Shown here: positions 592 through 64,000 of the stretch, one piece after another
Layout: every line of letters begins with the position of its first letter
Numbering within the stretch: the first letter of the stretch is position 1
Source of the DNA: Candidatus Omnitrophota bacterium
GTDB lineage: Bacteria; Omnitrophota; Gorgyraeia; Gygaellales; UBA12090
Assembly: GCA_030674475.1 (NCBI GenBank)
Contig: JAUSCZ010000042.1
Span: forward strand, 11,139-75,138
DNA: 64,000 bases
Direction of reading: 5' to 3'
The notes under the pieces: model-generated
The model's database searches: none
The model's input: the letters and a program-made list of their open reading frames with translations, nothing else
What the model was told of the DNA's origin: nothing
Made by a program: the position numbers and the translations under genes

Positions 592-1956
592 ATGGCTAAA
601 AGCGCGTCATTATCTTCAAAAGGAATCAGGCATAAATTATTTACCGCTGTCTGCCTTATGTCCGTAATCCCTATTCTTGTCTGCCTTAATTTTGCTTTTC
701 CCAGCTTATTTGTAAGTTTTCTCTCTAAGACGAGCTTTAAGTTTATAATTTTAATAATGATTTCTATCTCTTTGCTTGGCTTTGTCTTAATTAAACAGAT
801 TATAGAGCATATTATCAGGATGGCCCGGGAGGTTAAGTCTATAGCTGAGGGTGATACGGATAAATATATTGAAATCAAAAGTGAAGATGAGATAGGCCAG
901 TTAGGCTCAGCCATAAATCAACTTACCGCCAGGATTAAGGAAAATCTGAATGAACTTGAAGATTATGGTTCAAAGACCGCCCAGATAAATATAGATATCC
1001 AAAAGAGGGTCGTGACTATGTCGGGGTTATTGCAGATTTCAAGCTTAATCACTAAAGGCGCCAAGCTGGATGATATTTTGCATCTTTGCGTGGAAAAACT
1101 CAAAAGCGTGGCGGATTCATCCGCGGCGTTTATTTTATTTTTAGATAGTAACGGTAAGATGGTGATGCGGGCCCAGACAGGCTTAAACGTGGAGTGCGGA
1201 GCGTCACTGGCTGAATCCGATGAATGTGTATCGCGGGTGTTTCAAGGCGGCGCTCTTACCGTTATTGATGCCAAGAACTTTAATGCTTCTTGCCTTAAGT
1301 TATTATCCCTCTTGAATATTAAAAATCTATTGTGTCTGCCTATTTATTTGGCGCATAAACCGGCGGCTATAGCCGGGGTAGGGAATAATATCCCTGATTT
1401 TATCTATAAGCGCGATGACCAGGAGTTGCTGGATATTTTCGTCAAGCAAATGGCTATTGCCATTGAAAGCGATTGGCTGACGGCTAAGGTGGAAGGCCTG
1501 GAGATCAAAGATATGCTTACGGGCTTGTATAATGAGCGTTATGTCCGCCACCATTTAGACGAGGAGATAAAGAGGGCGATAATTTATCAACGCCCGTGCG
1601 GTTTTGTCCTGGCCAGGATACAAAATTTTACTTCTTACCAGAAGCTGTATGGCCAGGTTGCCTCAGAATCTGTTTTTAAGAAAATTGCTTCTTCCTTGAG
1701 CGCTTCGTTCTCAGGCATAGAGAAAGTAGGGAGGTTCGCGGATTATGATTTTGCCGTAATCTTGCCGGAAAAGAACAAGCGTCAAGCCCAAAAAACAGCC
1801 GAAGAACTTCAGAAAAATGTGGAAACTCTTTTTCAAGATGAGCCGGTTAAAGATAAAAGACTGGGCATATCCATAGCGGTAGTTGAGAATCCTTTAGATG
1901 GAGTGGATTCGAATGAGCTCATATCCATTGCCCGGAATCTGCTGAATAATAAATAA
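592..1956 (+). CDS. Membrane-anchored HAMP-GAF-GGDEF-like signalling protein with a degenerate (AD-YDF) GGDEF motif, probably not catalytic
   Basis: Two N-terminal hydrophobic helices are followed by a HAMP-like amphipathic segment (IIEHIIRMAREVKSIAEGDTDKYIEIKSEDEIGQLGSAINQLTARIKENL). A GAF-like middle region comes next, then a C-terminal GGDEF fold (LTGLYNERY...RFADYDFAVILPE). RFADYDF sits where RxGGDEF should be and ARIQNF sits where the metal-binding DxDxF should be. Confidence 0.7.
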   Translation: MAKSASLSSKGIRHKLFTAVCLMSVIPILVCLNFAFPSLFVSFLSKTSFKFIILIMISISLLGFVLIKQIIEHIIRMAREVKSIAEGDTDKYIEIKSEDEIGQLGSAINQLTARIKENLNELEDYGSKTAQINIDIQKRVVTMSGLLQISSLITKGAKLDDILHLCVEKLKSVADSSAAFILFLDSNGKMVMRAQTGLNVECGASLAESDECVSRVFQGGALTVIDAKNFNASCLKLLSLLNIKNLLCLPIYLAHKPAAIAGVGNNIPDFIYKRDDQELLDIFVKQMAIAIESDWLTAKVEGLEIKDMLTGLYNERYVRHHLDEEIKRAIIYQRPCGFVLARIQNFTSYQKLYGQVASESVFKKIASSLSASFSGIEKVGRFADYDFAVILPEKNKRQAQKTAEELQKNVETLFQDEPVKDKRLGISIAVVENPLDGVDSNELISIARNLLNNK

Positions 1957-2044
1957 TTGCTATCAGCTGTCGGCTTTCAGCTTTCTGCTTTTTGCTGAGA
2001 GCTGAAAACTGCCGGCTGATGGCTTAAAAAAAGGATTATTCTTA

Positions 2045-2491
2045 ATGTCTGGCAAGAAGATTGTAAACAAAAAATTAGGTGAACTGTTAGTTGAAAAAGC
2101 GCTGGTTACCCAGGAACAGCTGGATGAGGCCTTGGAATTGCAAAAGGATAAAGGCGGCCTTATCGGGGAGATTTTGGTTGAGCTTAAATATACCACTGAG
2201 GATGATATCGCCAAAATGCTTACCGCCCAGTATGGTTTCGCTTATCTGCCGCTTTCTAATTACGAGATTGATCAGAGCCTGATCAATCTAATTCCTGAGC
2301 GGGTGGCCAGGCAGTATTGTCTTATCCCTATTGACAAAATAGGTACTAATTTAACCATAGCGATGAGTAATCCCTTAAACAGCCAAGCTGTGGAAGATAT
2401 GGAGACGCTTACTTCCTGCAGTGTGCAGACGTTTGTTTCTACTGCCTCCGACATAAAGCAGGCCATTGAGAGGTATTATAAAAACAAATAA
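2045..2491 (+). CDS. Stand-alone T2SSE_N / MshEN-like domain protein with no ATPase domain; candidate c-di-GMP receptor
   Basis: The 148 aa protein aligns with the N-termini of the PilB copies downstream. Two tandem ~24-residue motifs, KLGELLVEKALVTQEQLDEALELQ and LIGEILVELKYTTEDDIAKMLTAQ, resemble the MshEN consensus RLGxxLVxxGxIxxxxLxxALxxQ. Each motif has a glycine substitution. Confidence 0.65.
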   Translation: MSGKKIVNKKLGELLVEKALVTQEQLDEALELQKDKGGLIGEILVELKYTTEDDIAKMLTAQYGFAYLPLSNYEIDQSLINLIPERVARQYCLIPIDKIGTNLTIAMSNPLNSQAVEDMETLTSCSVQTFVSTASDIKQAIERYYKNK

Positions 2492-2561
2492 CTGCTTTCA
2501 GTCTTCTGCTGTCAGCTTTCTGCCGATAGCCGATAGCTGATAGCCGATAGCTGATTTAAAA

Positions 2562-4283
2562 ATGGCTTCTTTAAAAGAACGGATAGTCCAGATACTTATT
2601 CAAGATAAGCTGATTACTCAGGATAATCTTGAATGCGCTTTAAGAGTTCAGAAGGAAAAAGGAGGACAGCTTAGCGGAATTTTAACGGAACTGAAATTTG
2701 TTGATGAAAACAAGCTTCTGGCGGCTATGTCCAAAGTCTTCTCTAAGCCAAGTATTGACATAACTCGTTTCCAGATTGCTCCCGAGGTTTTAAAAATAAT
2801 CCCGCCTAATATCTGCCGGCAGTATCAAGTAATCCCGGTTTCCAAATTCGGCAGCGCCCTCACCCTGGCGATGGCTGACCCTATGAATATCCTCGCCCTT
2901 GATGACGTAAAGAGTCTGACCGGTTATCAGATAAATCCCATTATTGCCGATTCCCGCAAGATAACCCAGGCGATTAATCAATGCTATGGCGAGGTTTCCT
3001 CAAAATCGGTTATCGAAGGATTGATCCAGGGCATTTCAGCCGAAAATATAGAATTGATTGAAGATAGAGAAGAGGAAGCGATTTCTTCGGCTGAATTAGG
3101 CCGCCTTGTTCAGGAGGCCCCGATTGTTACCTTTGTCAACAAGGTATTTGAGCAGGCGGTTAATTTTAAGTCTTCGGATATTATGCTTGAGCCTCAGGAA
3201 AACAAACTGCGCGTTCGTTTTCGTATTGACGGTATGCTTAAAGAGCAGCCTGAATGCCCAAAAGAGATAAGCGCCCTTATTGTTTCGCGGGTTAAGGTTA
3301 TCTCGGGCTTAAATATCGCTGAGCATCGTCTTCCTCAAGACGGAAGATTTAAGATGAAAATCGGCTCCGGCGAGGTGGATTTCCGGGTTTCGGTGCTTCC
3401 TACTGTTTTAGGGGAGAAGGTAGTGCTGAGGATCCTGGATAAATCCCAGTTGAATCTGGATATTGAAAGGCTGGGTTTTCAGGAAAAAGCCCTTTCTGAA
3501 CTAAAAGAATGCGCTCTTAAGCCTTACGGGATGGTCCTGGCGACCGGGCCGACCGGAAGCGGAAAAACCACTACTTTATATTCTCTGATAAAATTAATTG
3601 ACCGCCCCAAGATTAATATCGTTACCGTTGAAGATCCGGTTGAGTTTCAGATTCCGGGGATAAACCAAGTGAATGTCCAGCCGGAGATAGGGCTTACTTT
3701 CGCCTCAGCCTTACGTTCCATCTTAAGGCAGGATCCCAATGTGATTATGATCGGCGAAATCAGAGATTCTCAGACGGTAGATATTGCCATAAAGTCCGCG
3801 TTGACCGGACATTTAGTTTTATCCACTCTGCATACCACGACTGCCTGCGGGGCAGTGGTGCGCTTAATGAATATGGGGATAGAGCCTTTTTTAATTAACT
3901 CGGCAATAAACTGTATCGCGGCCCAAAGATTGGCCCGGGTTCTTTGCTCGGACTGTAAGGAGAAATATGAACTTAAAGAAGATGTTGCCCTTAAGCTTAA
4001 ACTCACCGTCAGAGACAAGAAAGAGCCGTATATTTTTTTCAGGCCCAAAGGCTGTGGTAAATGTTTCCATACCGGGTATCGCGGGAGGGTAGTTTTGGCG
4101 GAGGTCTTGGTTTTGAGCCCTAAGATAAAGGAGCTGATTTTCAGCCGTTCCCAGGAGCACGCGCTAAAACAGGCCGCCAGGGCCGAGGGGATGCAGACCT
4201 TAAGGGAAGACGGCTTGTTTAAAGTCCGCAGCGGAGTAATTTCACTTGAAGAGATGCTTCGGGTGAGCGGGGGAGATGAGTAA
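2562..4283 (+). CDS. pilB: PilB/GspE-family type IV pilus / T2SS assembly ATPase, copy 1
   Basis: N-terminal MshEN-like motifs (RIVQILIQDKLITQDNLECALRVQ and LSGILTELKFVDENKLLAAM). Walker A GPTGSGKTTTLYS. His-box LTGHLVLSTLHT. C-terminal tetracysteine CSDC...CGKC. Confidence 0.9.
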   Translation: MASLKERIVQILIQDKLITQDNLECALRVQKEKGGQLSGILTELKFVDENKLLAAMSKVFSKPSIDITRFQIAPEVLKIIPPNICRQYQVIPVSKFGSALTLAMADPMNILALDDVKSLTGYQINPIIADSRKITQAINQCYGEVSSKSVIEGLIQGISAENIELIEDREEEAISSAELGRLVQEAPIVTFVNKVFEQAVNFKSSDIMLEPQENKLRVRFRIDGMLKEQPECPKEISALIVSRVKVISGLNIAEHRLPQDGRFKMKIGSGEVDFRVSVLPTVLGEKVVLRILDKSQLNLDIERLGFQEKALSELKECALKPYGMVLATGPTGSGKTTTLYSLIKLIDRPKINIVTVEDPVEFQIPGINQVNVQPEIGLTFASALRSILRQDPNVIMIGEIRDSQTVDIAIKSALTGHLVLSTLHTTTACGAVVRLMNMGIEPFLINSAINCIAAQRLARVLCSDCKEKYELKEDVALKLKLTVRDKKEPYIFFRPKGCGKCFHTGYRGRVVLAEVLVLSPKIKELIFSRSQEHALKQAARAEGMQTLREDGLFKVRSGVISLEEMLRVSGGDE

Positions 4284-5971
4284 TGGCTGTTTTTAAAGAA
4301 AGATTGACGGAGTTGTTAGTTACTCAAGGCATCCTTTCTAAGGAGAGGCTCCAGGAGGCCTTTGAAATTCAGAAGAAAAAGGCCGTTTCCTTAAGAGAAG
4401 TCTTGCTAAAAGAGGGCTTTGTTGATGAGGCCAAGCTCATTTCCGTATTGTCCGAGTCGCTTTATATACCTACCTTAAATTTATCCAACTACCGGATTGA
4501 CGCGTCTTTAGCCGAAGTTGTTCCGGAAAGGATGTCCCGCCAATATCACCTGGTGCCGATTTCCCGTATCGGCGATAATCTTACCGTGGCCATGGCTGAT
4601 CCTTTGAATATATTTGCTTTGGATGATTTAAGGCTTTTTACCGGACATAGAATAGAGCCGGTTATCGCTTTAGAGAAAGATATCCTTCTGGCTATAAATA
4701 GCGTCTACCGGCATAAGGAGCATAATGTTTCTTTATTGGAGCAAGAAAAGGAAGCCGGCGGCCGCCTCTCTCAAGATACGGTAGTCAAGGTGGATGATTT
4801 TAGAGATCAGACTAACGCCGCGCCGATTGTCAAGATTATTAATCTAATGATATTGGAGGCGCTCAAGAAGAGGGCTTCGGATATACATGTAGAGCCGCAG
4901 GAATTTGATGTGAGGATTCGTTACCGTATTGACGGTGAGTTGGCTGACGCCTTTAGAATACCCAAAAGCAACCAGAACGCGATAATTGCCAGGCTCAAAA
5001 TTATCTCAGGGCTGGATACCACCGAGACCCGTCTGCCGCAAGACGGCAGGTTTAAAATAAAATCCGCGGATAAGGAGGTTGATTTTAGGGTTTCCTCTCT
5101 TCCCACCAGCTTCGGCCAGAAGATGGTGCTGCGCATTTTAGATAAATCTTCTCTCTCTTTAGGCCTCCAGCGCCTGGGATTCTCGAGTCAGGCTAGGTCT
5201 GCTTTTAATGAGGTAATCCATAAACCCTATGGAATGATTTTGGTAACCGGCCCTACCGGAAGCGGCAAATCCACAACTCTGTATTCTGTCTTGAGCCAGC
5301 TGAACACCCCGGAAAAAAATATAATTACCATTGAAGACCCGGTTGAATATCAGCTTGCCGGGATTAGCCAGATTCAGGTTAATTCTGAAATAAGCCTGGA
5401 TTTTGCCTCGGGGCTGCGTTCTATTTTAAGGCAGAGTCCGGATGTGATTTTAATCGGTGAAATCAGGGACGGAGAAACTGCCGATATCGCGGTCAAGGCC
5501 GCTCTTACCGGGCATCTGGTCATGTCCACTTTGCATACCAATAACGCCAGTCAGGTTATCACCAGGTTGGTAGATATGGGTGTAGAGCCTTTTCTGGTTG
5601 CTTCCAGTTTAATTATGAGTTCGGCCCAGCGTCTGATACGGCTTATCTGCGCTCATTGTAAAGAGCCTGATAATGATGTCTCGCGGCCCATACTGAAGAG
5701 TTTAGGCCTCAGCCCGGATATCGCGCTGTTTCGCGGCCGGGGATGCCGTCTTTGCGGCAATACCGGATTTTACGGCAGAAACGCTTTGCTGGAAATTTTG
5801 ATGATTGATGATATAATAAAAGAAATGGTGGTAAAGGGTTCTTCCTCCCAGCAGATTGAAGATTACGCGGTTTCTAAGCTGGGTATGAAGACCCTGCGTC
5901 AGGAGGCCATAGACAAGGCCAAGGAAGGCTTAACTACCCTGGCGGAGGTGGTAAGGGTTACCGCGGAGTAA
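4283..5971 (+). CDS. pilB: PilB/GspE-family assembly ATPase, copy 2 (tandem paralog)
   Basis: Its start overlaps the stop of copy 1. N-terminal RLTELLVTQGILSKERLQEAFEIQ is a good MshEN match. Walker A GPTGSGKSTTLYS. LTGHLVMSTLHT. CAHC...CRLC zinc motif. Confidence 0.9.
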   Translation: MAVFKERLTELLVTQGILSKERLQEAFEIQKKKAVSLREVLLKEGFVDEAKLISVLSESLYIPTLNLSNYRIDASLAEVVPERMSRQYHLVPISRIGDNLTVAMADPLNIFALDDLRLFTGHRIEPVIALEKDILLAINSVYRHKEHNVSLLEQEKEAGGRLSQDTVVKVDDFRDQTNAAPIVKIINLMILEALKKRASDIHVEPQEFDVRIRYRIDGELADAFRIPKSNQNAIIARLKIISGLDTTETRLPQDGRFKIKSADKEVDFRVSSLPTSFGQKMVLRILDKSSLSLGLQRLGFSSQARSAFNEVIHKPYGMILVTGPTGSGKSTTLYSVLSQLNTPEKNIITIEDPVEYQLAGISQIQVNSEISLDFASGLRSILRQSPDVILIGEIRDGETADIAVKAALTGHLVMSTLHTNNASQVITRLVDMGVEPFLVASSLIMSSAQRLIRLICAHCKEPDNDVSRPILKSLGLSPDIALFRGRGCRLCGNTGFYGRNALLEILMIDDIIKEMVVKGSSSQQIEDYAVSKLGMKTLRQEAIDKAKEGLTTLAEVVRVTAE

Positions 5972-5989: not shown

Positions 5990-7054
5990 ATGAGCCAGGG
6001 CAGAATATTATTAATCTCAGACAGTCAATTAATGAATAAGGCCTTGGTAGAAATACTAGCCAATAGGGATTATGAAACGGTTATTTCTGTTGATAGCGGC
6101 TCTGCCTTAAGGTATTTGGATAATGATTTTGATTTGGTTATTTTAAGATGCGGCCTCAGTGCCTGTGATATAAAGAATTTTGTTCAGGATCTCATTGTCA
6201 GGGATTCGTCGCTGGTGATACTGCTTATGGTGGAAGACAGCGATTTTGATTTAACCAGAGAATTTCCCACCAGCGGTATCTTTGAGACAGTAAGGTTCCC
6301 CATACATAATGTCGAAAGTTTTGCTTTTCTGGTAAAGACAGCCTCTCACGCGCATTCCTCAATCGTTTCATATAAAAGGATACTATTGAGCCTGGAGGAG
6401 CGTAACTCTTCTTTACAGAAGCAGAATATGCTTCTGGCTAACCGGGTTGAGGAATCAAGTAAAAACTTAGGGCGTATGTATGAAGATCTGCGTAAAACCT
6501 ACGTGCATACGGTTAAATCTTTAATTGAGGCGATTGACGCCCGGGACCATTATACCCGAAGCCACTCCGAGAAGGTGTCCCGCCGCGCGGTTTTGATTGC
6601 CGAGGAGATGGGGTTATCGGTAAAAGAAATAGAGACGATACGCCAGGCAGGAGAATTGCATGATGTGGGCAAAATCGGCATCGAGGATAGTATTTTAACT
6701 AAACCCGCAGCGCTTAATGATGAGGAATGGGTGAAGATGAGATTACATTCAATTAAAGGCGCCCAAATTCTAGAGCCGCTTACCTTTTTGGGCGATGTAG
6801 CTTCGATTGTCCGCCAGAATCATGAACGTTACGGCGGCGGCGGTTATCCTGACGGCCTCAAAGGCGAAGAGATTGCCCTGGGGGCAAGGATAATCAGCCT
6901 TGCCGACGCCTATGATGTTATGACTTCAATAAGAAGTTACCGCAAGGATGTTTTTAGCAAAGAGCAGGCAATTGAAGAAGTAAAACGTAATTCGGGAAAA
7001 CAATTTGATCCTAAAGTGGTCGAGGCATTCTTAAGGATAGCGGATAAATTCTAA
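5990..7054 (+). CDS. HD-GYP c-di-GMP phosphodiesterase with an N-terminal degenerate (pseudo) receiver domain
   Basis: The C-terminal half carries HYTRSH...LHDVGKIGI...HERYGGGGYPDGL, i.e. HD plus GYP. The N-terminal ~120 aa has a receiver-like fold, but the phospho-acceptor position reads DLVILRCGL, with Arg where Asp is expected. Confidence 0.8.
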   Translation: MSQGRILLISDSQLMNKALVEILANRDYETVISVDSGSALRYLDNDFDLVILRCGLSACDIKNFVQDLIVRDSSLVILLMVEDSDFDLTREFPTSGIFETVRFPIHNVESFAFLVKTASHAHSSIVSYKRILLSLEERNSSLQKQNMLLANRVEESSKNLGRMYEDLRKTYVHTVKSLIEAIDARDHYTRSHSEKVSRRAVLIAEEMGLSVKEIETIRQAGELHDVGKIGIEDSILTKPAALNDEEWVKMRLHSIKGAQILEPLTFLGDVASIVRQNHERYGGGGYPDGLKGEEIALGARIISLADAYDVMTSIRSYRKDVFSKEQAIEEVKRNSGKQFDPKVVEAFLRIADKF

Positions 7055-7055
7055 A

Positions 7056-8258
7056 ATGTCAGTCTATAAATATAGCGCCAAAAATAAAAACTCTGAAAGC
7101 GTAGAGGGAACATTAGAGGCCGGATCTCAGGCTGAAGCGGAGAATATTCTGCACTCTAAAGGCTTGCTGATTGTTTCTTTAAAAAATATCCCGGACAGGC
7201 AGTTAAAGAAAACCCGGGATAGGAAAGTTTCCCTTGATGCCCTGGTGATTTTTTCCCGCCAGCTGGCTACTATGATTGACAGCGGCATAACCCTGGTCGC
7301 GGCCTTAGAGATACTTAAAGACCAGATAGACGACCGCGCGCTCTGCGCTATAATTTCCAAGATATACCGCGATGTGCAGGAGGGAAAAAGTTTTTGCGAT
7401 TCTACGGCAAAATATCCCGCCGCTTTTTCTGATTTTTATATCAATATGATTAAGGCCGGAGAGGCCTCCGGAAGGCTGGATGAGGTCCTGGAAAGGCTGG
7501 CGGTGTTTCTGGAGAAGACCGCCGCCCTAATCAGAAAGGTGCAGTCAAGTTTGGTGTATCCGGCGGTTATAATAACCATGGCTATTTCTATAACCGTATT
7601 TTTGATGATAAAAGTTGTCCCTACCTTTAAGGGTATTTTTGCTACCTTAGGGGGTGAATTACCGGTTCCGACGCAGATATTAATTCTCGCCAGCGATACT
7701 TTAAAAAATTATTTTTTATTCATTCTGATTGCTTTGGGGGTGTTATCATTTTTACTGCGGCGTTACATCAAGACTCCTTCCGGAAGACGAATGTTCGATA
7801 AGCTTACTTTAAAAGTTCCCATATTCGGGCCTCTTTTTCTTAAGGCGGCGGTGGCCAGATTTGCCCGGACTTTTTCTACTTTGGTAAAAAGCGGCGTGCC
7901 TATCTTGAATACCTTAGAGATCGTTTCCAAAACTGCCGGGAATAAAATAATCGAACAGGCGGTGGAAAACGCCCGGCAGGCAATCCGTCAGGGTGAACCT
8001 TTGTATCAGCCTTTAGATAAAGCCAATGTTTTTCCGGCAATGGTAATCAGGATGATCAAGGTTGGCGAGCAGGCCGGAGAGCTGGAGAAGATGCTTTCCA
8101 AGATAGCCGATTTTTATGAAGAGCAGGTGGATGTCGCGGTAAGCAGTATGACCAGCCTGATTGAGCCTTTAGTGATTGCCGTTTTGGGTATACTTATCGG
8201 CGGAATTGTCCTGGCTCTTTTCCTTCCTATATTTAAAATAACCACATTGATAGGTTAA
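7056..8258 (+). CDS. pilC: PilC/GspF inner-membrane platform protein
   Basis: 400 aa with the typical GspF-family duplicated cytoplasmic domains, an N-terminus of the pattern YKYSAKNKNSESVEGTLEA..AEAENIL..GL, and three TM segments. Confidence 0.9.
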   Translation: MSVYKYSAKNKNSESVEGTLEAGSQAEAENILHSKGLLIVSLKNIPDRQLKKTRDRKVSLDALVIFSRQLATMIDSGITLVAALEILKDQIDDRALCAIISKIYRDVQEGKSFCDSTAKYPAAFSDFYINMIKAGEASGRLDEVLERLAVFLEKTAALIRKVQSSLVYPAVIITMAISITVFLMIKVVPTFKGIFATLGGELPVPTQILILASDTLKNYFLFILIALGVLSFLLRRYIKTPSGRRMFDKLTLKVPIFGPLFLKAAVARFARTFSTLVKSGVPILNTLEIVSKTAGNKIIEQAVENARQAIRQGEPLYQPLDKANVFPAMVIRMIKVGEQAGELEKMLSKIADFYEEQVDVAVSSMTSLIEPLVIAVLGILIGGIVLALFLPIFKITTLIG

Positions 8259-30729: not shown

Positions 30730-30999
30730 TAAAAAATTACCAAAAGGAGACAGGAAAACCTGGAGCCAAATAATTTGGTAAAAATAGTGGAAGAAAAAAC
30801 CACAGCAGTTGACAATACCGGATAGATATTGAAGGACGAATAAGCGCCTTTTTAAAGATAGATAAAAGCGCTCATAGATTTGTCTGAGCGCTTTTTTTGT
30901 TTCTTTAGAGAGCTAAAAAGATAAATTTCAATCGTTCTTTGAGAATTAAATAGCCAAGCCCACTCGTCCCGGCATTATGCCGGGCAAAGAGCTTTATTT

Positions 31000-32578
<1,579 letters not shown>

Positions 32579-32799
32579 AAAATTTTTTGGCTGTGCCAAA
32601 GATATTTTAGAATAATGTTTTAGGTTGATAGTCTAAAGCTATTAACTATTTTTAATCAGACTCGCGATAATAGGCTTTATCGTTTGGAGCTTGGCTATTT
32701 TTTATTTAACGCGAATAGACGCGGAAACTACGGGTTCGTGATTCGTGATTAGTGATTCGTGATTCAAGAACGAACCACGATACACGAACAACGAAATGC

Positions 32800-32876
32800 G
32801 GGCCCATAGCTCAGTTGGTTAGAGCACAGCCCTGATAAGACTGGGGTCAGTGGTTCGAATCCACTTGGGCCCACCA
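32800..32876 (+). tRNA. tRNA-Ile (anticodon GAT)
   Basis: gggcccatagctcagttggttagagcacagccctgataagactggggtcagtggttcgaatccacttgggcccacca. Cloverleaf is intact and CCA is encoded. Confidence 0.9.
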
Positions 32877-32989
32877 AATTTTTGCTGTGCGAAAATTTGG
32901 TAGAGCAATTGAAAATTGAACAATAGAACAAATAGAACATAATAGCTTCAGCTGCGTTCTATTTTCTATTGCTCTATTGCTCAAGACTC

Positions 32990-33062
32990 GGGGCAGTAGC
33001 TCAGCTGGGAGAGCGTCTGATTTGCATTCAGAAGGTCGGGAGTTCGAGCCTCCTCTGCTCCA
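32990..33062 (+). tRNA. tRNA-Ala (anticodon TGC)
   Basis: ggggcagtagctcagctgggagagcgtctgatttgcattcagaaggtcgggagttcgagcctcctctgctcca. The G3:U70 identity pair is present. CCA is not encoded. Confidence 0.9.
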
Positions 33063-33303
33063 CTTAAATTTTCCTTGTCGGAAAATTTAAGTGGATACTG
33101 AGCAAGCGTAAGCGGCACGACAGAGTGCCTGAGCTGAGTCGAAGTATCTTCCCCTATAAAATATAATACTAATAGTAAAACATACATTTTCTTCGCGGCC
33201 AGTCCCGCGATTGGATGTTCTTTGACAACTTAATATAATCAAGTAACAAGGAGTCTTTTCGAAAGAGAAGATTCGGGTAACAATTTGCCAAATAGAATTA
33301 AAA

Positions 33304-36288
<2,985 letters not shown>

Positions 36289-36439
36289 TATAACGTATAG
36301 CGTGTAGCGCGCAGCGTATAGGAAACTATCCGCTCAGCGCTGCACGCTAAACGCTAAAACATGATATAGGTTTAGTCTGTTTTATAAATGTTGTAAGTGT
36401 TATTCTGCTTGATTATACAAAGTTGTCTTATGAAAATTC

Positions 36440-36556
36440 GGAGCATTCTTACCGGAGGGGCCACACCCGTTCCCATTCCGAACACGGTAGTTAAGACCTC
36501 CAGGGCCGATGGTACTTTAGTAGTAATGCTATGGGAGAGTAGGACGATGCTCCGGC
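36440..36556 (+). rRNA. rrf: 5S ribosomal RNA
   Basis: ggagcat...ccgaacacggtagttaag...atgctcc terminal helix. About 117 nt. Confidence 0.85.
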
Positions 36557-50163: not shown

Positions 50164-50245
50164 TGCGGAAGGAGAGAGTTGAACTCTCAAGGGTTGCCCC
50201 ATACGCTTCTGAGACGTACGCGTATGCCAGTTCCGCCACTTCCGC
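50164..50245 (-). tRNA. tRNA-Leu (anticodon CAG)
   Basis: The minus-strand sequence gcggaagtggcggaactggcatacgcgtacgtctcagaagcgtatggggcaacccttgagagttcaactctctccttccgc has a long variable arm and T-loop ttcaact. CCA is not encoded. Confidence 0.8.
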
Positions 50246-52023: not shown

Positions 52024-52457
52024 GGGGGTGAAAGGTTTCGACTTAGACGAGTTGGGTATCAGTGGCATGCCGCGGACGCAGGGAAGGCCGCGATAACAAA
52101 CCTTGCAAAAGTCAAACGCTAAAAACGAGAATGATCGTTTATTAAAAACAGTTGAGGGTTATGTTGCTCCATTTTTTGTTGCAACACCCCGCCCTGTTTT
52201 TACAGCGCCAGTCTTCGCTCACTAATCTGAGCGAAGCCCCTTACCGTTTAGCCTAAGAAACGGCGTAGGGCAAATTAGATAGGCTGGTTTCCTGCCCTGC
52301 CCTGGGACAGGGAATGAGAGCTATAAAAGGGATGACCCTTAGGGAATCACGGTTATCGGAGGCCCTGAGGATGACGGTTAAAAAGGTAACCTACGCATTG
52401 TAGAGGCTGGTATTTGACTGTTTGAGGACGCGAGTTCGATTCTCGCCACCTCCACCA
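52024..52457 (+). ncRNA. ssrA: tmRNA (SsrA)
   Basis: Lies directly downstream of smpB. The 5' end gggggtgaaaggtttcgac pairs with the 3' end ...ggacgcgagttcgattctcgccacctccacca. This is a tRNA-Ala-like acceptor with a G3:U pair and encoded CCA, plus a ggcatgccg pseudoknot region. Palindromic hairpins follow at 52458-52530. Confidence 0.8.
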
Positions 52458-57430: not shown

Positions 57431-57508
57431 GTAATCCTCCCCTTACCAAGGGGAGGCGGGGTGGGGTAAGAAATCCTCCCCTTACCAAGGGGAGGCGGGG
57501 TGGGGTTA
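57431..57508. repeat. Two tandem copies of the cctccccttaccaaggggaggcggggtggggt hairpin repeat
   Basis: Two ~38 bp copies with near-identity, with the downstream pilC RBS AGGAGG immediately after the second copy. Confidence 0.85.
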
Positions 57509-57523
57509 AGAAGGAGGTTTTGT

Positions 57524-59225: not shown

Positions 59226-59316
59226 TTAGCAGCTGTCAGCTGTCAGCTTTCAGCTTTTTACTGATAGCTGAAGGCTTAAAAAAGGAAGTTGTAATGAGGT
59301 CAAGAAGGCAAAAATT

Positions 59317-63863: not shown

Positions 63864-64000
63864 TGATTTCATTCAGGAAAAATAATCTTTTTCAGCTTTC
63901 TGCTTTCAGCTTTCTGCTTTCAGCTATGTTAATTGGCTGTGCCACCACCGGCCGTATTCAAAAAACAGGGCTTCCGGTAGAAAGCTTTTCCGTCAATAAT
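63860..64000 (+). CDS. Start of a lipoprotein, probably the PilQ secretin N-terminus (partial; continues beyond the window)
   Basis: MMISFRKNNLFQLSAFSFLLSAMLIGCATTG has a lipobox LIGC. There is no stop before the window end. The PilQ assignment rests on position alone, after pilMNOP. Confidence 0.4.
   Translation, partial: MMISFRKNNLFQLSAFSFLLSAMLIGCATTGRIQKTGLPVESFSVNN

Follow-up and report, generated by a model that had tools for sequence, protein, structure and literature searches.

The 64,000-nucleotide stretch of contig JAUSCZ010000042.1 from a Candidatus Omnitrophota bacterium that was analyzed here (the window) carries on its forward strand a small gene (2045..2491) whose product of 148 amino acids (aa) is a stand-alone MshEN domain. 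Like PilZ and the recently added ComFB family, MshEN belongs to the few receptor domains for cyclic di-GMP (c-di-GMP) that are found widely, and to our knowledge it has so far been studied within larger proteins. In the window, the gene starts at an ATG codon preceded at about 10 nucleotides (nt) by a Shine-Dalgarno-like sequence (AAAGGA), and it is followed by two pilB genes for the ATPases of a type IVa pilus. On balance, we favor the view that its product is a c-di-GMP receptor subunit, probably of high affinity, that is detached from the pilus motor and acts on it in trans.

Based on searches with profile hidden Markov models, two models together span the whole protein. The 53-residue NCBIfam model NF053729 ('c-di-GMP_motif') matched residues 10-62 with 64.2 bits (curated cutoff 38), and the Pfam MshEN model PF05157 matched residues 63-146 (E 1.1e-21; 77 bits against a cutoff of 23.1). 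The product consists of a single, complete MshEN domain with nothing added to it. No match to the T2SSE ATPase domain (PF00437) was found in it with Pfam, and the PilB model TIGR02538 gave 85 bits, far below its cutoff of 676 and over model positions 1-138 only. For these two reasons the protein is not a PilB. Some databases name its relatives 'type IV pilus assembly protein PilB', and a 100% identical protein in a Candidatus Omnitrophota metagenome-assembled genome is annotated 'hypothetical protein'. Among solved structures, the N-domain of Vibrio cholerae MshE (5HTL) was matched at E 2e-16 by the single sequence (phmmer) and at 5e-20 by the family profile; Thermus PilF, Geobacter PilB and Myxococcus PilB were the other sequence matches. 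An AlphaFold2 model, made from an alignment of 16 family members, had a mean predicted local distance difference test score of 85.6 and showed four helices (residues 10-17, 23-36, 40-46 and 52-63) followed by an alpha/beta unit, in which a beta-sheet is accompanied by flanking helices. Its top Foldseek match in the Protein Data Bank was again 5HTL ('MshE with cdg'; E 1.7e-11, TM-score 0.68-0.72), and lower matches included the GSPII-A and GSPII-B domains of PilF, the Xanthomonas PilB(N)-PilZ complex and XpsE-N. All the family features of MshEN, in sequence and in fold, were found in the protein except two turn glycines. A stand-alone MshEN domain had been proposed in a preliminary description made from the DNA letters; the profile models, the matches to 5HTL and the fold search all bear this out, and the domain identity is secure.

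The same description had pointed to two tandem motifs of 24 residues, which were recovered at their expected spacing. Motif 1, KLGELLVEKALVTQEQLDEALELQ (2072..2143, forward strand; residues K10-Q33), and motif 2, LIGEILVELKYTTEDDIAKMLTAQ (2159..2230, forward strand; residues L39-Q62), aligned with R9-Q32 and R38-Q61 of V. cholerae MshE (VcMshE). The alignment has no gap from R9 to Q61, the spacer KDKGG being of the expected 5 residues. Conservation was assessed in other genomes: species-representative genomes yielded 452 stretches with a gene for a relative, and the best 80 loci were analyzed. All of these orthologous loci are from Omnitrophota, a few of them labelled 'uncultured Planctomycetales'. 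By open reading frame (ORF) call, the orthologues measure 144-168 aa, mostly 146-151 aa, and their ends are conserved.

We tabulated the motif positions over the 80 orthologues in VcMshE numbering. In VcMshE, the glycine at motif position 3 (G11, G40) and the residue next to it contact O6 and N7 of guanine through their backbone amides (PMC5013675). The G11L and G40I variants of VcMshEN showed poor, if any, binding, that of G11L being undetectable by isothermal titration calorimetry; mutation of Gly11 abrogated binding and gave the most impaired complementation of an mshE mutant, and the non-binder XpsE corresponds to G11V, G40L (PMC5013675). Both ligand-contacting glycines are present in the window protein (G12 and G41) and in 80/80 orthologues. 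The hydrophobic triads and the terminal glutamines are present as well (L11, L26, L30, I40, I55, L59, Q33 and Q62), with I40 and I55 as conservative Leu to Ile changes that are invariant in the family. Positions L10, G11, L14, L25, G40, L54 (as Ile), L58 and Q61 did not vary among the 80 sequences, and L29 and Q32 were kept in 77 and 75 of them. Nine of the 10 ligand-contact positions fell in columns conserved at 95% or more, against 57 of the 138 other positions (Fisher p 0.003). The motifs begin with K10 and L39, the latter invariant in all orthologues. The same pair starts the motifs of Thermus PilF GSPII-B (K167/L196), an Arg-free site with a dissociation constant (KD) for c-di-GMP of 6 nM; on this basis the consensus was widened to (R/K/L)LG, and a hydrophobic first residue was proposed to predict very high affinity (PMC11731258). 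Judging from these residues, the 148-aa protein is probably a high-affinity c-di-GMP binder.

The remainder of the protein is MshEN_C, a T2SSE_N1-like alpha/beta subdomain (2231..2482, forward strand; residues 63-146) delimited by PF05157 and by the secondary structure of the AlphaFold2 model. Its conservation (mean 0.87) equals or exceeds that of the ligand-binding N subdomain (0.81), and it contains the family-invariant stretches QYGF..LPL (QYGFAYLPL), AMSNPLN and FVST. The conservation of MshEN_C therefore indicates a conserved protein partner.

Concerning the two pilB genes, the preliminary description correctly placed them directly downstream and gave each its own MshEN copy. Both are full-length: PilB1 (2562..4283, forward strand; 573 aa) and PilB2 (4283..5971, forward strand; 562 aa) consist of MshEN and T2SSE domains according to Pfam, score 646 and 627 bits with TIGR02538 and show Walker A, Walker B and tetracysteine motifs in their translations. 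The start of PilB2 overlaps the stop of PilB1 by 1 nt. What the description missed is that both N-domains are degenerate and lack the critical glycine in both motifs, which start RIV.../QLS... in PilB1 and RLT.../SLR... in PilB2. The loss is general, as none of 74 PilB1 orthologues has Gly at either the Gly11 or the Gly40 position (T/I at the first, S at the second) and none of 63 PilB2 orthologues has it at either position (I/V at the first, R at the second). Because both PilB copies have lost key binding residues, a separate subunit has probably taken over signal sensing for the motor. An origin of the small gene by recent duplication of a neighboring PilB N-domain was rejected, as the three domains are nearly equidistant at 31-38% identity.

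The arrangement seen in the window is that of the phylum. Nearly all of the 80 loci share the gene order [~585-aa gene]-GGDEF-MshEN-PilB-PilB-(HD-GYP)-PilC, and in 70 or more of them the GGDEF gene lies directly 5' of the MshEN gene. No other gene of the cluster is as well conserved as the latter, whose median identity to the window is 67%; the corresponding values are 59% for PilC, 58% for PilB1, 56% for PilB2, 49% for HD-GYP and 42% for GGDEF. More distant relatives repeat the pattern: the genes run MshEN, PilB, PilB, HD-GYP, PilC and pilin in L081 (46% identity), REC, MshEN, PilB, PilB and PilC in L085 (48%), and canonical RYGGDEF cyclase, MshEN, PilB and PilC, with only one PilB, in L083 (42%). 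In all three, the end of the MshEN gene and the beginning of pilB share 4-17 nt, and both glycines are again missing from the PilBs. The cyclase gene of L083 (6090-7004), directly 5' of MshEN, encodes a protein with a transmembrane segment and HAMP and GGDEF domains.

One metagenomic contig (L087, 6001-8298) carries the two components in a single chain. It encodes a 765-aa (MshEN)2-T2SSE protein (P0130), followed by a second PilB and PilC. Of the two MshEN domains of P0130, the first shares 40% identity with the stand-alone protein and retains both glycines; in the second, which adjoins the ATPase, Ile and Leu stand at these positions. A low-complexity linker rich in Gly, Asn and Lys lies between the two. 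By its domain content, P0130 is a fused, Rosetta-stone counterpart of the split MshEN and PilB1. Two ORFs of 1170 aa that resembled PilB1-PilB2 fusions, in L018 and L045, were discarded as artefacts of scaffold runs of 100 N (10301-10400 in L018 and 9036-9135 in L045). A variant of 212-215 aa, such as P0080 (L086, 7001-7639), occupies the same operon position and has an extra N-terminal MshEN_N, with two complete sites. A search of 1.84 billion cluster representatives returned many MshEN-only clusters of 144-180 aa at 41-59% identity, as well as ATPases with several MshEN domains and further fusion proteins. At 44-55% identity to the query, MshEN domains also occur in a number of other architectures, being fused to a DnaA-type AAA+ ATPase domain in P0158, likewise and with an FHA domain in P0212, to PilZ and DUF7305 in P0151, and forming an ATPase-less triple MshEN in P0125; the MshEN-DnaA-like combination was not seen in the architecture table of Wang 2016.

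The other genes of the cluster lie on the same strand, with short or overlapping junctions. Upstream of MshEN, a membrane-anchored protein of 454 aa (592..1956, forward strand) has HAMP, GAF and GGDEF domains by Pfam. Among 72 orthologues of this protein the active-site consensus is G-D-[D/N]-E-F, and the Arg of the inhibitory site is replaced by S/T. Its role as a local cyclase was rejected for this clade, as the active site reads ADYDF (GDDEF/GDNEF in the family) and the inhibitory site is missing. The degeneracy at both sites extends throughout the phylum. Degenerate GGDEF proteins have been linked to pili in predatory bacteria, and the product of 592-1956 may resemble them. Downstream of pilB2, a protein of 354 aa (5990..7054, forward strand) combines a pseudo-receiver, weakly matched by REC, with an HD-GYP phosphodiesterase-type domain (Pfam HD_5/HD). 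Its family keeps the HD pair and the motif HHExYDG[S/T]GYP (consensus HHEHYDGSGYP), from which the window protein is slightly off (NHERYGGGGYP), and in its receiver-like N-domain the phospho-acceptor Asp is replaced by K/R. The HD-GYP enzyme of the operon is probably active, to judge from its motifs. A platform protein PilC of 400 aa (7056..8258, forward strand; two T2SSF repeats in Pfam, E 3e-63) follows.

Both junctions of the MshEN gene with its neighbors contain hairpins. A long imperfect hairpin with heptad repeats TTTCAGC/AGCTGAA occupies the gap between GGDEF and MshEN (1959..2023, forward strand; minimum free energy -42.9 kcal/mol, z -8.2), and another with heptad repeats GCCGATA/AGCTGAT occupies the gap between MshEN and PilB1 (2498..2554, forward strand; -28.7 kcal/mol, z -5.2). 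The TTTCAGC/AGCTGAA family is frequent in the window, where TTTCAGCTTTCTGC has 12 matches at two or fewer mismatches against 0.93 expected, and further intergenic heptad-repeat arrays were located at 59230-59261 and 63890-63925. In about half of the 80 loci the spacer between MshEN and pilB1 has at least 40 nt and is strongly structured; in the other loci the two genes directly adjoin. The hairpins may act as an intercistronic stabilizer or attenuator that uncouples the expression of MshEN from that of pilB, or they may belong to a genome-wide element like the repetitive extragenic palindromes. Elsewhere in the window, a complete rRNA operon (16S, two spacer tRNAs, 23S and 5S; 30998-36555), a transfer-messenger RNA gene (52024-52457) and one more tRNA gene (50164-50245) were identified. 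An intergenic GC-rich unit of 39 nt, AATCCTCCCCTTACCAAGGGGAGGCGGGGTGGGGTTAAGA, is present in two tandem copies of 97% identity at 57433-57512, in a genome that is otherwise AT-rich, and each unit holds a CCCCTT...AAGGGG inverted repeat.

In the mechanism that we propose, c-di-GMP would bind between the two 24-residue motifs, with predicted contacts from the backbone amides of G12/E13 and G41/E42, the Leu/Ile triads and Q33/Q62, and with K10 and L39 stacking on the bases. Loaded or unloaded, MshEN would dock through MshEN_C onto PilB1, PilB2 or both, or onto their platform, and docking would tune pilus extension; the (MshEN)2-ATPase design of other bacteria would thus be rebuilt from two polypeptides. 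The co-encoded HD-GYP enzyme could reset the signal locally, and the membrane-bound degenerate GGDEF protein would serve as a sensor or scaffold, not as a cyclase. In MshE, Myxococcus PilB and PilF, regulatory input comes from MshEN domains in cis (PMC11656802), and the free MshEN would supply in trans what those domains supply. Ligand binding, affinity, partner and direction of regulation are what we infer from the sequences in this scheme. The preliminary description had offered three functions, a c-di-GMP sink, a trans-acting adaptor and a decoy; the adaptor, as a sensor, appears to fit best, and the other two look weakened. The evidence behind this fit is the synteny with pilB across the phylum, the abutting or overlapping of the genes, the one fusion to a PilB and the conservation of MshEN_C. 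A further extension of the scheme we regard as speculative and rather unlikely: that throughout the phylum, and in some related lineages, a diffusible nanomolar MshEN subunit serves two PilBs and determines which one engages the platform, with the HD-GYP/GGDEF module setting the extension mode.

Several observations weigh against a c-di-GMP receptor acting on the motor. Within the site itself, the two turn glycines of VcMshE (G18 and G47, in the alpha1-alpha2 and alpha3-alpha4 turns) are replaced by A19 and K48. These are the Gly to Ala and Gly to Lys changes to which the preliminary description drew attention; they are real, but were given undue weight, as they affect turn residues and are clade-specific. 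Since Gly is kept in 69/80 orthologues at the A19 position and in 70/80 at the K48 position, the replacements are a quirk of a small clade and not a family trait. Wang et al. described these glycines between the helices as structural, 'required for the turns' (PMC5013675). AlphaFold2 predicts both turns despite A19 and K48, and no mutational data for the turn-glycine positions were found in the literature. The first residue of motif 1 is Q in 57/80 and P in 10/80 orthologues, residues that the published R/K/L set does not include. The guanine-contacting Asp (D108 in VcMshE, D266 in PilF) is Asn (N109), invariantly, in the family. Concerning the source of the signal, the GGDEF domain of the operon is degenerate, with ADYDF for GGDEF and without an RxxD inhibitory site, and a regular-expression scan for G[GS][DE]EF found no canonical cyclase in the 64-kb window. 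As to the ATPases, their N-domains still clear the NF053729 cutoff of 38 (41.5 bits for PilB1, 40.2 for PilB2), and the Ser at the Gly40 position of PilB1 is small, so that residual c-di-GMP binding by the ATPases may be possible. PilBs without a functional motif are also common in bacteria without a stand-alone MshEN, so that the complementarity between MshEN and the PilBs is suggestive and no proof. Finally, one relative (L084, 47% identity) is an orphan far from pilus genes, and both of its motif-terminal glutamines are replaced by Glu.

Among the other explanations, the one that survives best, doubtful as we find it, is a competitive decoy or anti-activator: MshEN would mimic the N1 domain of PilB, fill the place where PilB docks on the platform (on PilM/PilC or on a PilZ-like partner) and block engagement of the motor, with c-di-GMP switching the block. 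The protein has the same fold as both PilB N-domains, at the identity given above, and the fold matches include solved complexes (2BH1, 4PHT and 7LKM) of homologous N1 domains docked to GspL or PilZ. The greater conservation of MshEN_C would suit such mimicry, and the stable hairpin 3' of the MshEN stop could uncouple its expression from that of pilB. However, the MshEN stop overlaps the pilB start in many genomes, which suggests co-production in a fixed ratio, and the homologue in L087 is covalently fused to the first PilB, an arrangement ill-fitting a pure competitor. Nor is the surface identical to that of the PilB N-domains, from which QYGFAYLPL and AMSNPLN (AMADPLN in the PilBs) differ.

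A passive sink or buffer, in which an abundant small protein with high affinity would define the threshold of free c-di-GMP and make no contact with the pilus, seems to us improbable. An apparently intact ligand site with motif starts of the high-affinity type is what it would require, the flanking hairpins might stabilize the transcript segment and raise abundance, and in one Omnitrophota locus (L079, 8001-15367) MshEN is still paired with HD-GYP, whose gene comes immediately after it and before an rRNA operon, with no adjacent pilB or pilC. Yet isolated VcMshEN_N binds c-di-GMP as well as the full domain (PMC5013675). A sink is disfavored because the 53-residue MshEN_N alone would suffice for binding and MshEN_C is nevertheless kept in every orthologue; it also leaves unexplained why the gene adjoins or overlaps pilB throughout the phylum and why the fusion exists.

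We give as little credit to a structural subunit that has lost c-di-GMP binding and works independently of the ligand as an assembly or bridging factor, for instance by organizing PilB1/PilB2 hexamers. The lost turn glycines, the Q or P that starts motif 1 in most orthologues, the D108 to N change and the degenerate GGDEF of the operon would agree with it. The ligand-contact positions are nevertheless selectively conserved, including both contact glycines, whose only known role is to contact the ligand, and a probably active HD-GYP enzyme in the operon, as well as the canonical GGDEF upstream of MshEN in L083, would be out of place with such a subunit. That the ORF is an annotation artefact or the N-terminal remnant of a broken pilB, as the N-terminal-only match to a PilB model (its best in NCBIfam) and the known truncated pilB fragments encoding MshEN_N, for example in a Paenibacillus reference strain (PMC9765702), might suggest, is refuted by its conservation, its uniform length and the two intact pilB genes downstream, and we give it practically no credence.

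A free-standing MshEN that is a c-di-GMP receptor would show that this sensor can work as an independent subunit, and it would explain c-di-GMP regulation of ATPases with 'dead' N-domains. Under the speculative extension given above, it would in addition represent a second-messenger-controlled, exchangeable regulatory subunit for an ATPase of the secretion superfamily, and would put the extension mode, for example in attachment to a host or prey cell, under local HD-GYP/GGDEF control. To specialists such a division of labor may be neat rather than startling. Nearly all Omnitrophota have type IVa pili, which are believed to be the basis of a host-attached or predatory lifestyle (PMC10066038). 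The small, easily expressed protein offers a handle on pilus signaling in this uncultured, probably host-dependent phylum. For annotation, the presence of MshEN on a PilB does not equal c-di-GMP binding, and small upstream ORFs called 'hypothetical protein' or 'PilB' merit a name of their own.

We compared the MshEN protein with known systems. No plain stand-alone MshEN is listed in Supplementary Table 4 of Wang 2016, and no description of a plain MshEN_N+C protein, of its operon or of the complementarity with PilB was found in the architecture table of Wang 2016, in a review on the cofactors of PilB from 2024 or in the paper on Omnitrophota genomics, although an earlier mention may exist elsewhere. 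Literature searches returned nothing specific on a stand-alone MshEN or on the regulation of PilB in Omnitrophota. ATPase-less proteins are known, and we compared them by description only: PA3740 of Pseudomonas aeruginosa (MshEN-xT2SSE_N1), listed as an experimentally characterized c-di-GMP binder involved in swarming, and the cyanobacterial (MshEN_N)2 proteins. The N1 domain of PA3740 is, however, highly diverged and the cyanobacterial proteins lack MshEN_C. The PilB-PilZ-FimX system of Xanthomonas and Pseudomonas (7LKM; PMC8389850) is alike in that a non-sensing PilB N-domain, which is the docking site, obtains its signal from a separate receptor. There the receptor is the degenerate EAL domain of FimX, bridged by a PilZ protein that does not bind the ligand, whereas the candidate receptor of the window is itself paralogous to the PilB N-domain, in a cluster in which no PilZ adaptor was seen. 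Since it has neither a PilZ nor an EAL domain, the MshEN protein is not a member of the FimX-PilZ family, and the likeness would be functional only.

The V. cholerae MshE N-domain (MshEN, 5HTL) shares with the window protein the two-subdomain fold, the 24+5+24 motif, both contact glycines, both glutamines and the Leu triads. It differs in its attached ATPase and in having Arg at the start of the motifs (K10 and L39 here), the turn glycines (A19 and K48 here) and D108 (Asn here). In site chemistry the closest known domain, by its residues, is Thermus thermophilus PilF GSPII-B (8PDK; KD 6 nM), which has the identical K/L pair at the motif starts and Arg-free recognition; its D266-R268 pair corresponds to N109-L111 in the window protein. 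PilF is also a motor with several MshEN domains of which only some bind the ligand, but its three domains and ATPase form one chain, whereas here the putatively binding-competent domain is encoded by a gene of its own. The (MshEN)2-4-T2SSE ATPases (Supplementary Table 4 of Wang 2016; P0130/L087 and P0121) have the domain content of MshEN plus PilB1, and P0130 goes further, as its first domain keeps the glycines, the second, adjacent to the ATPase, has lost them, and PilB and PilC follow downstream. These ATPases are one polypeptide where the window encodes two, and therefore the stoichiometry and the choice of partner, PilB1 or PilB2, can vary.

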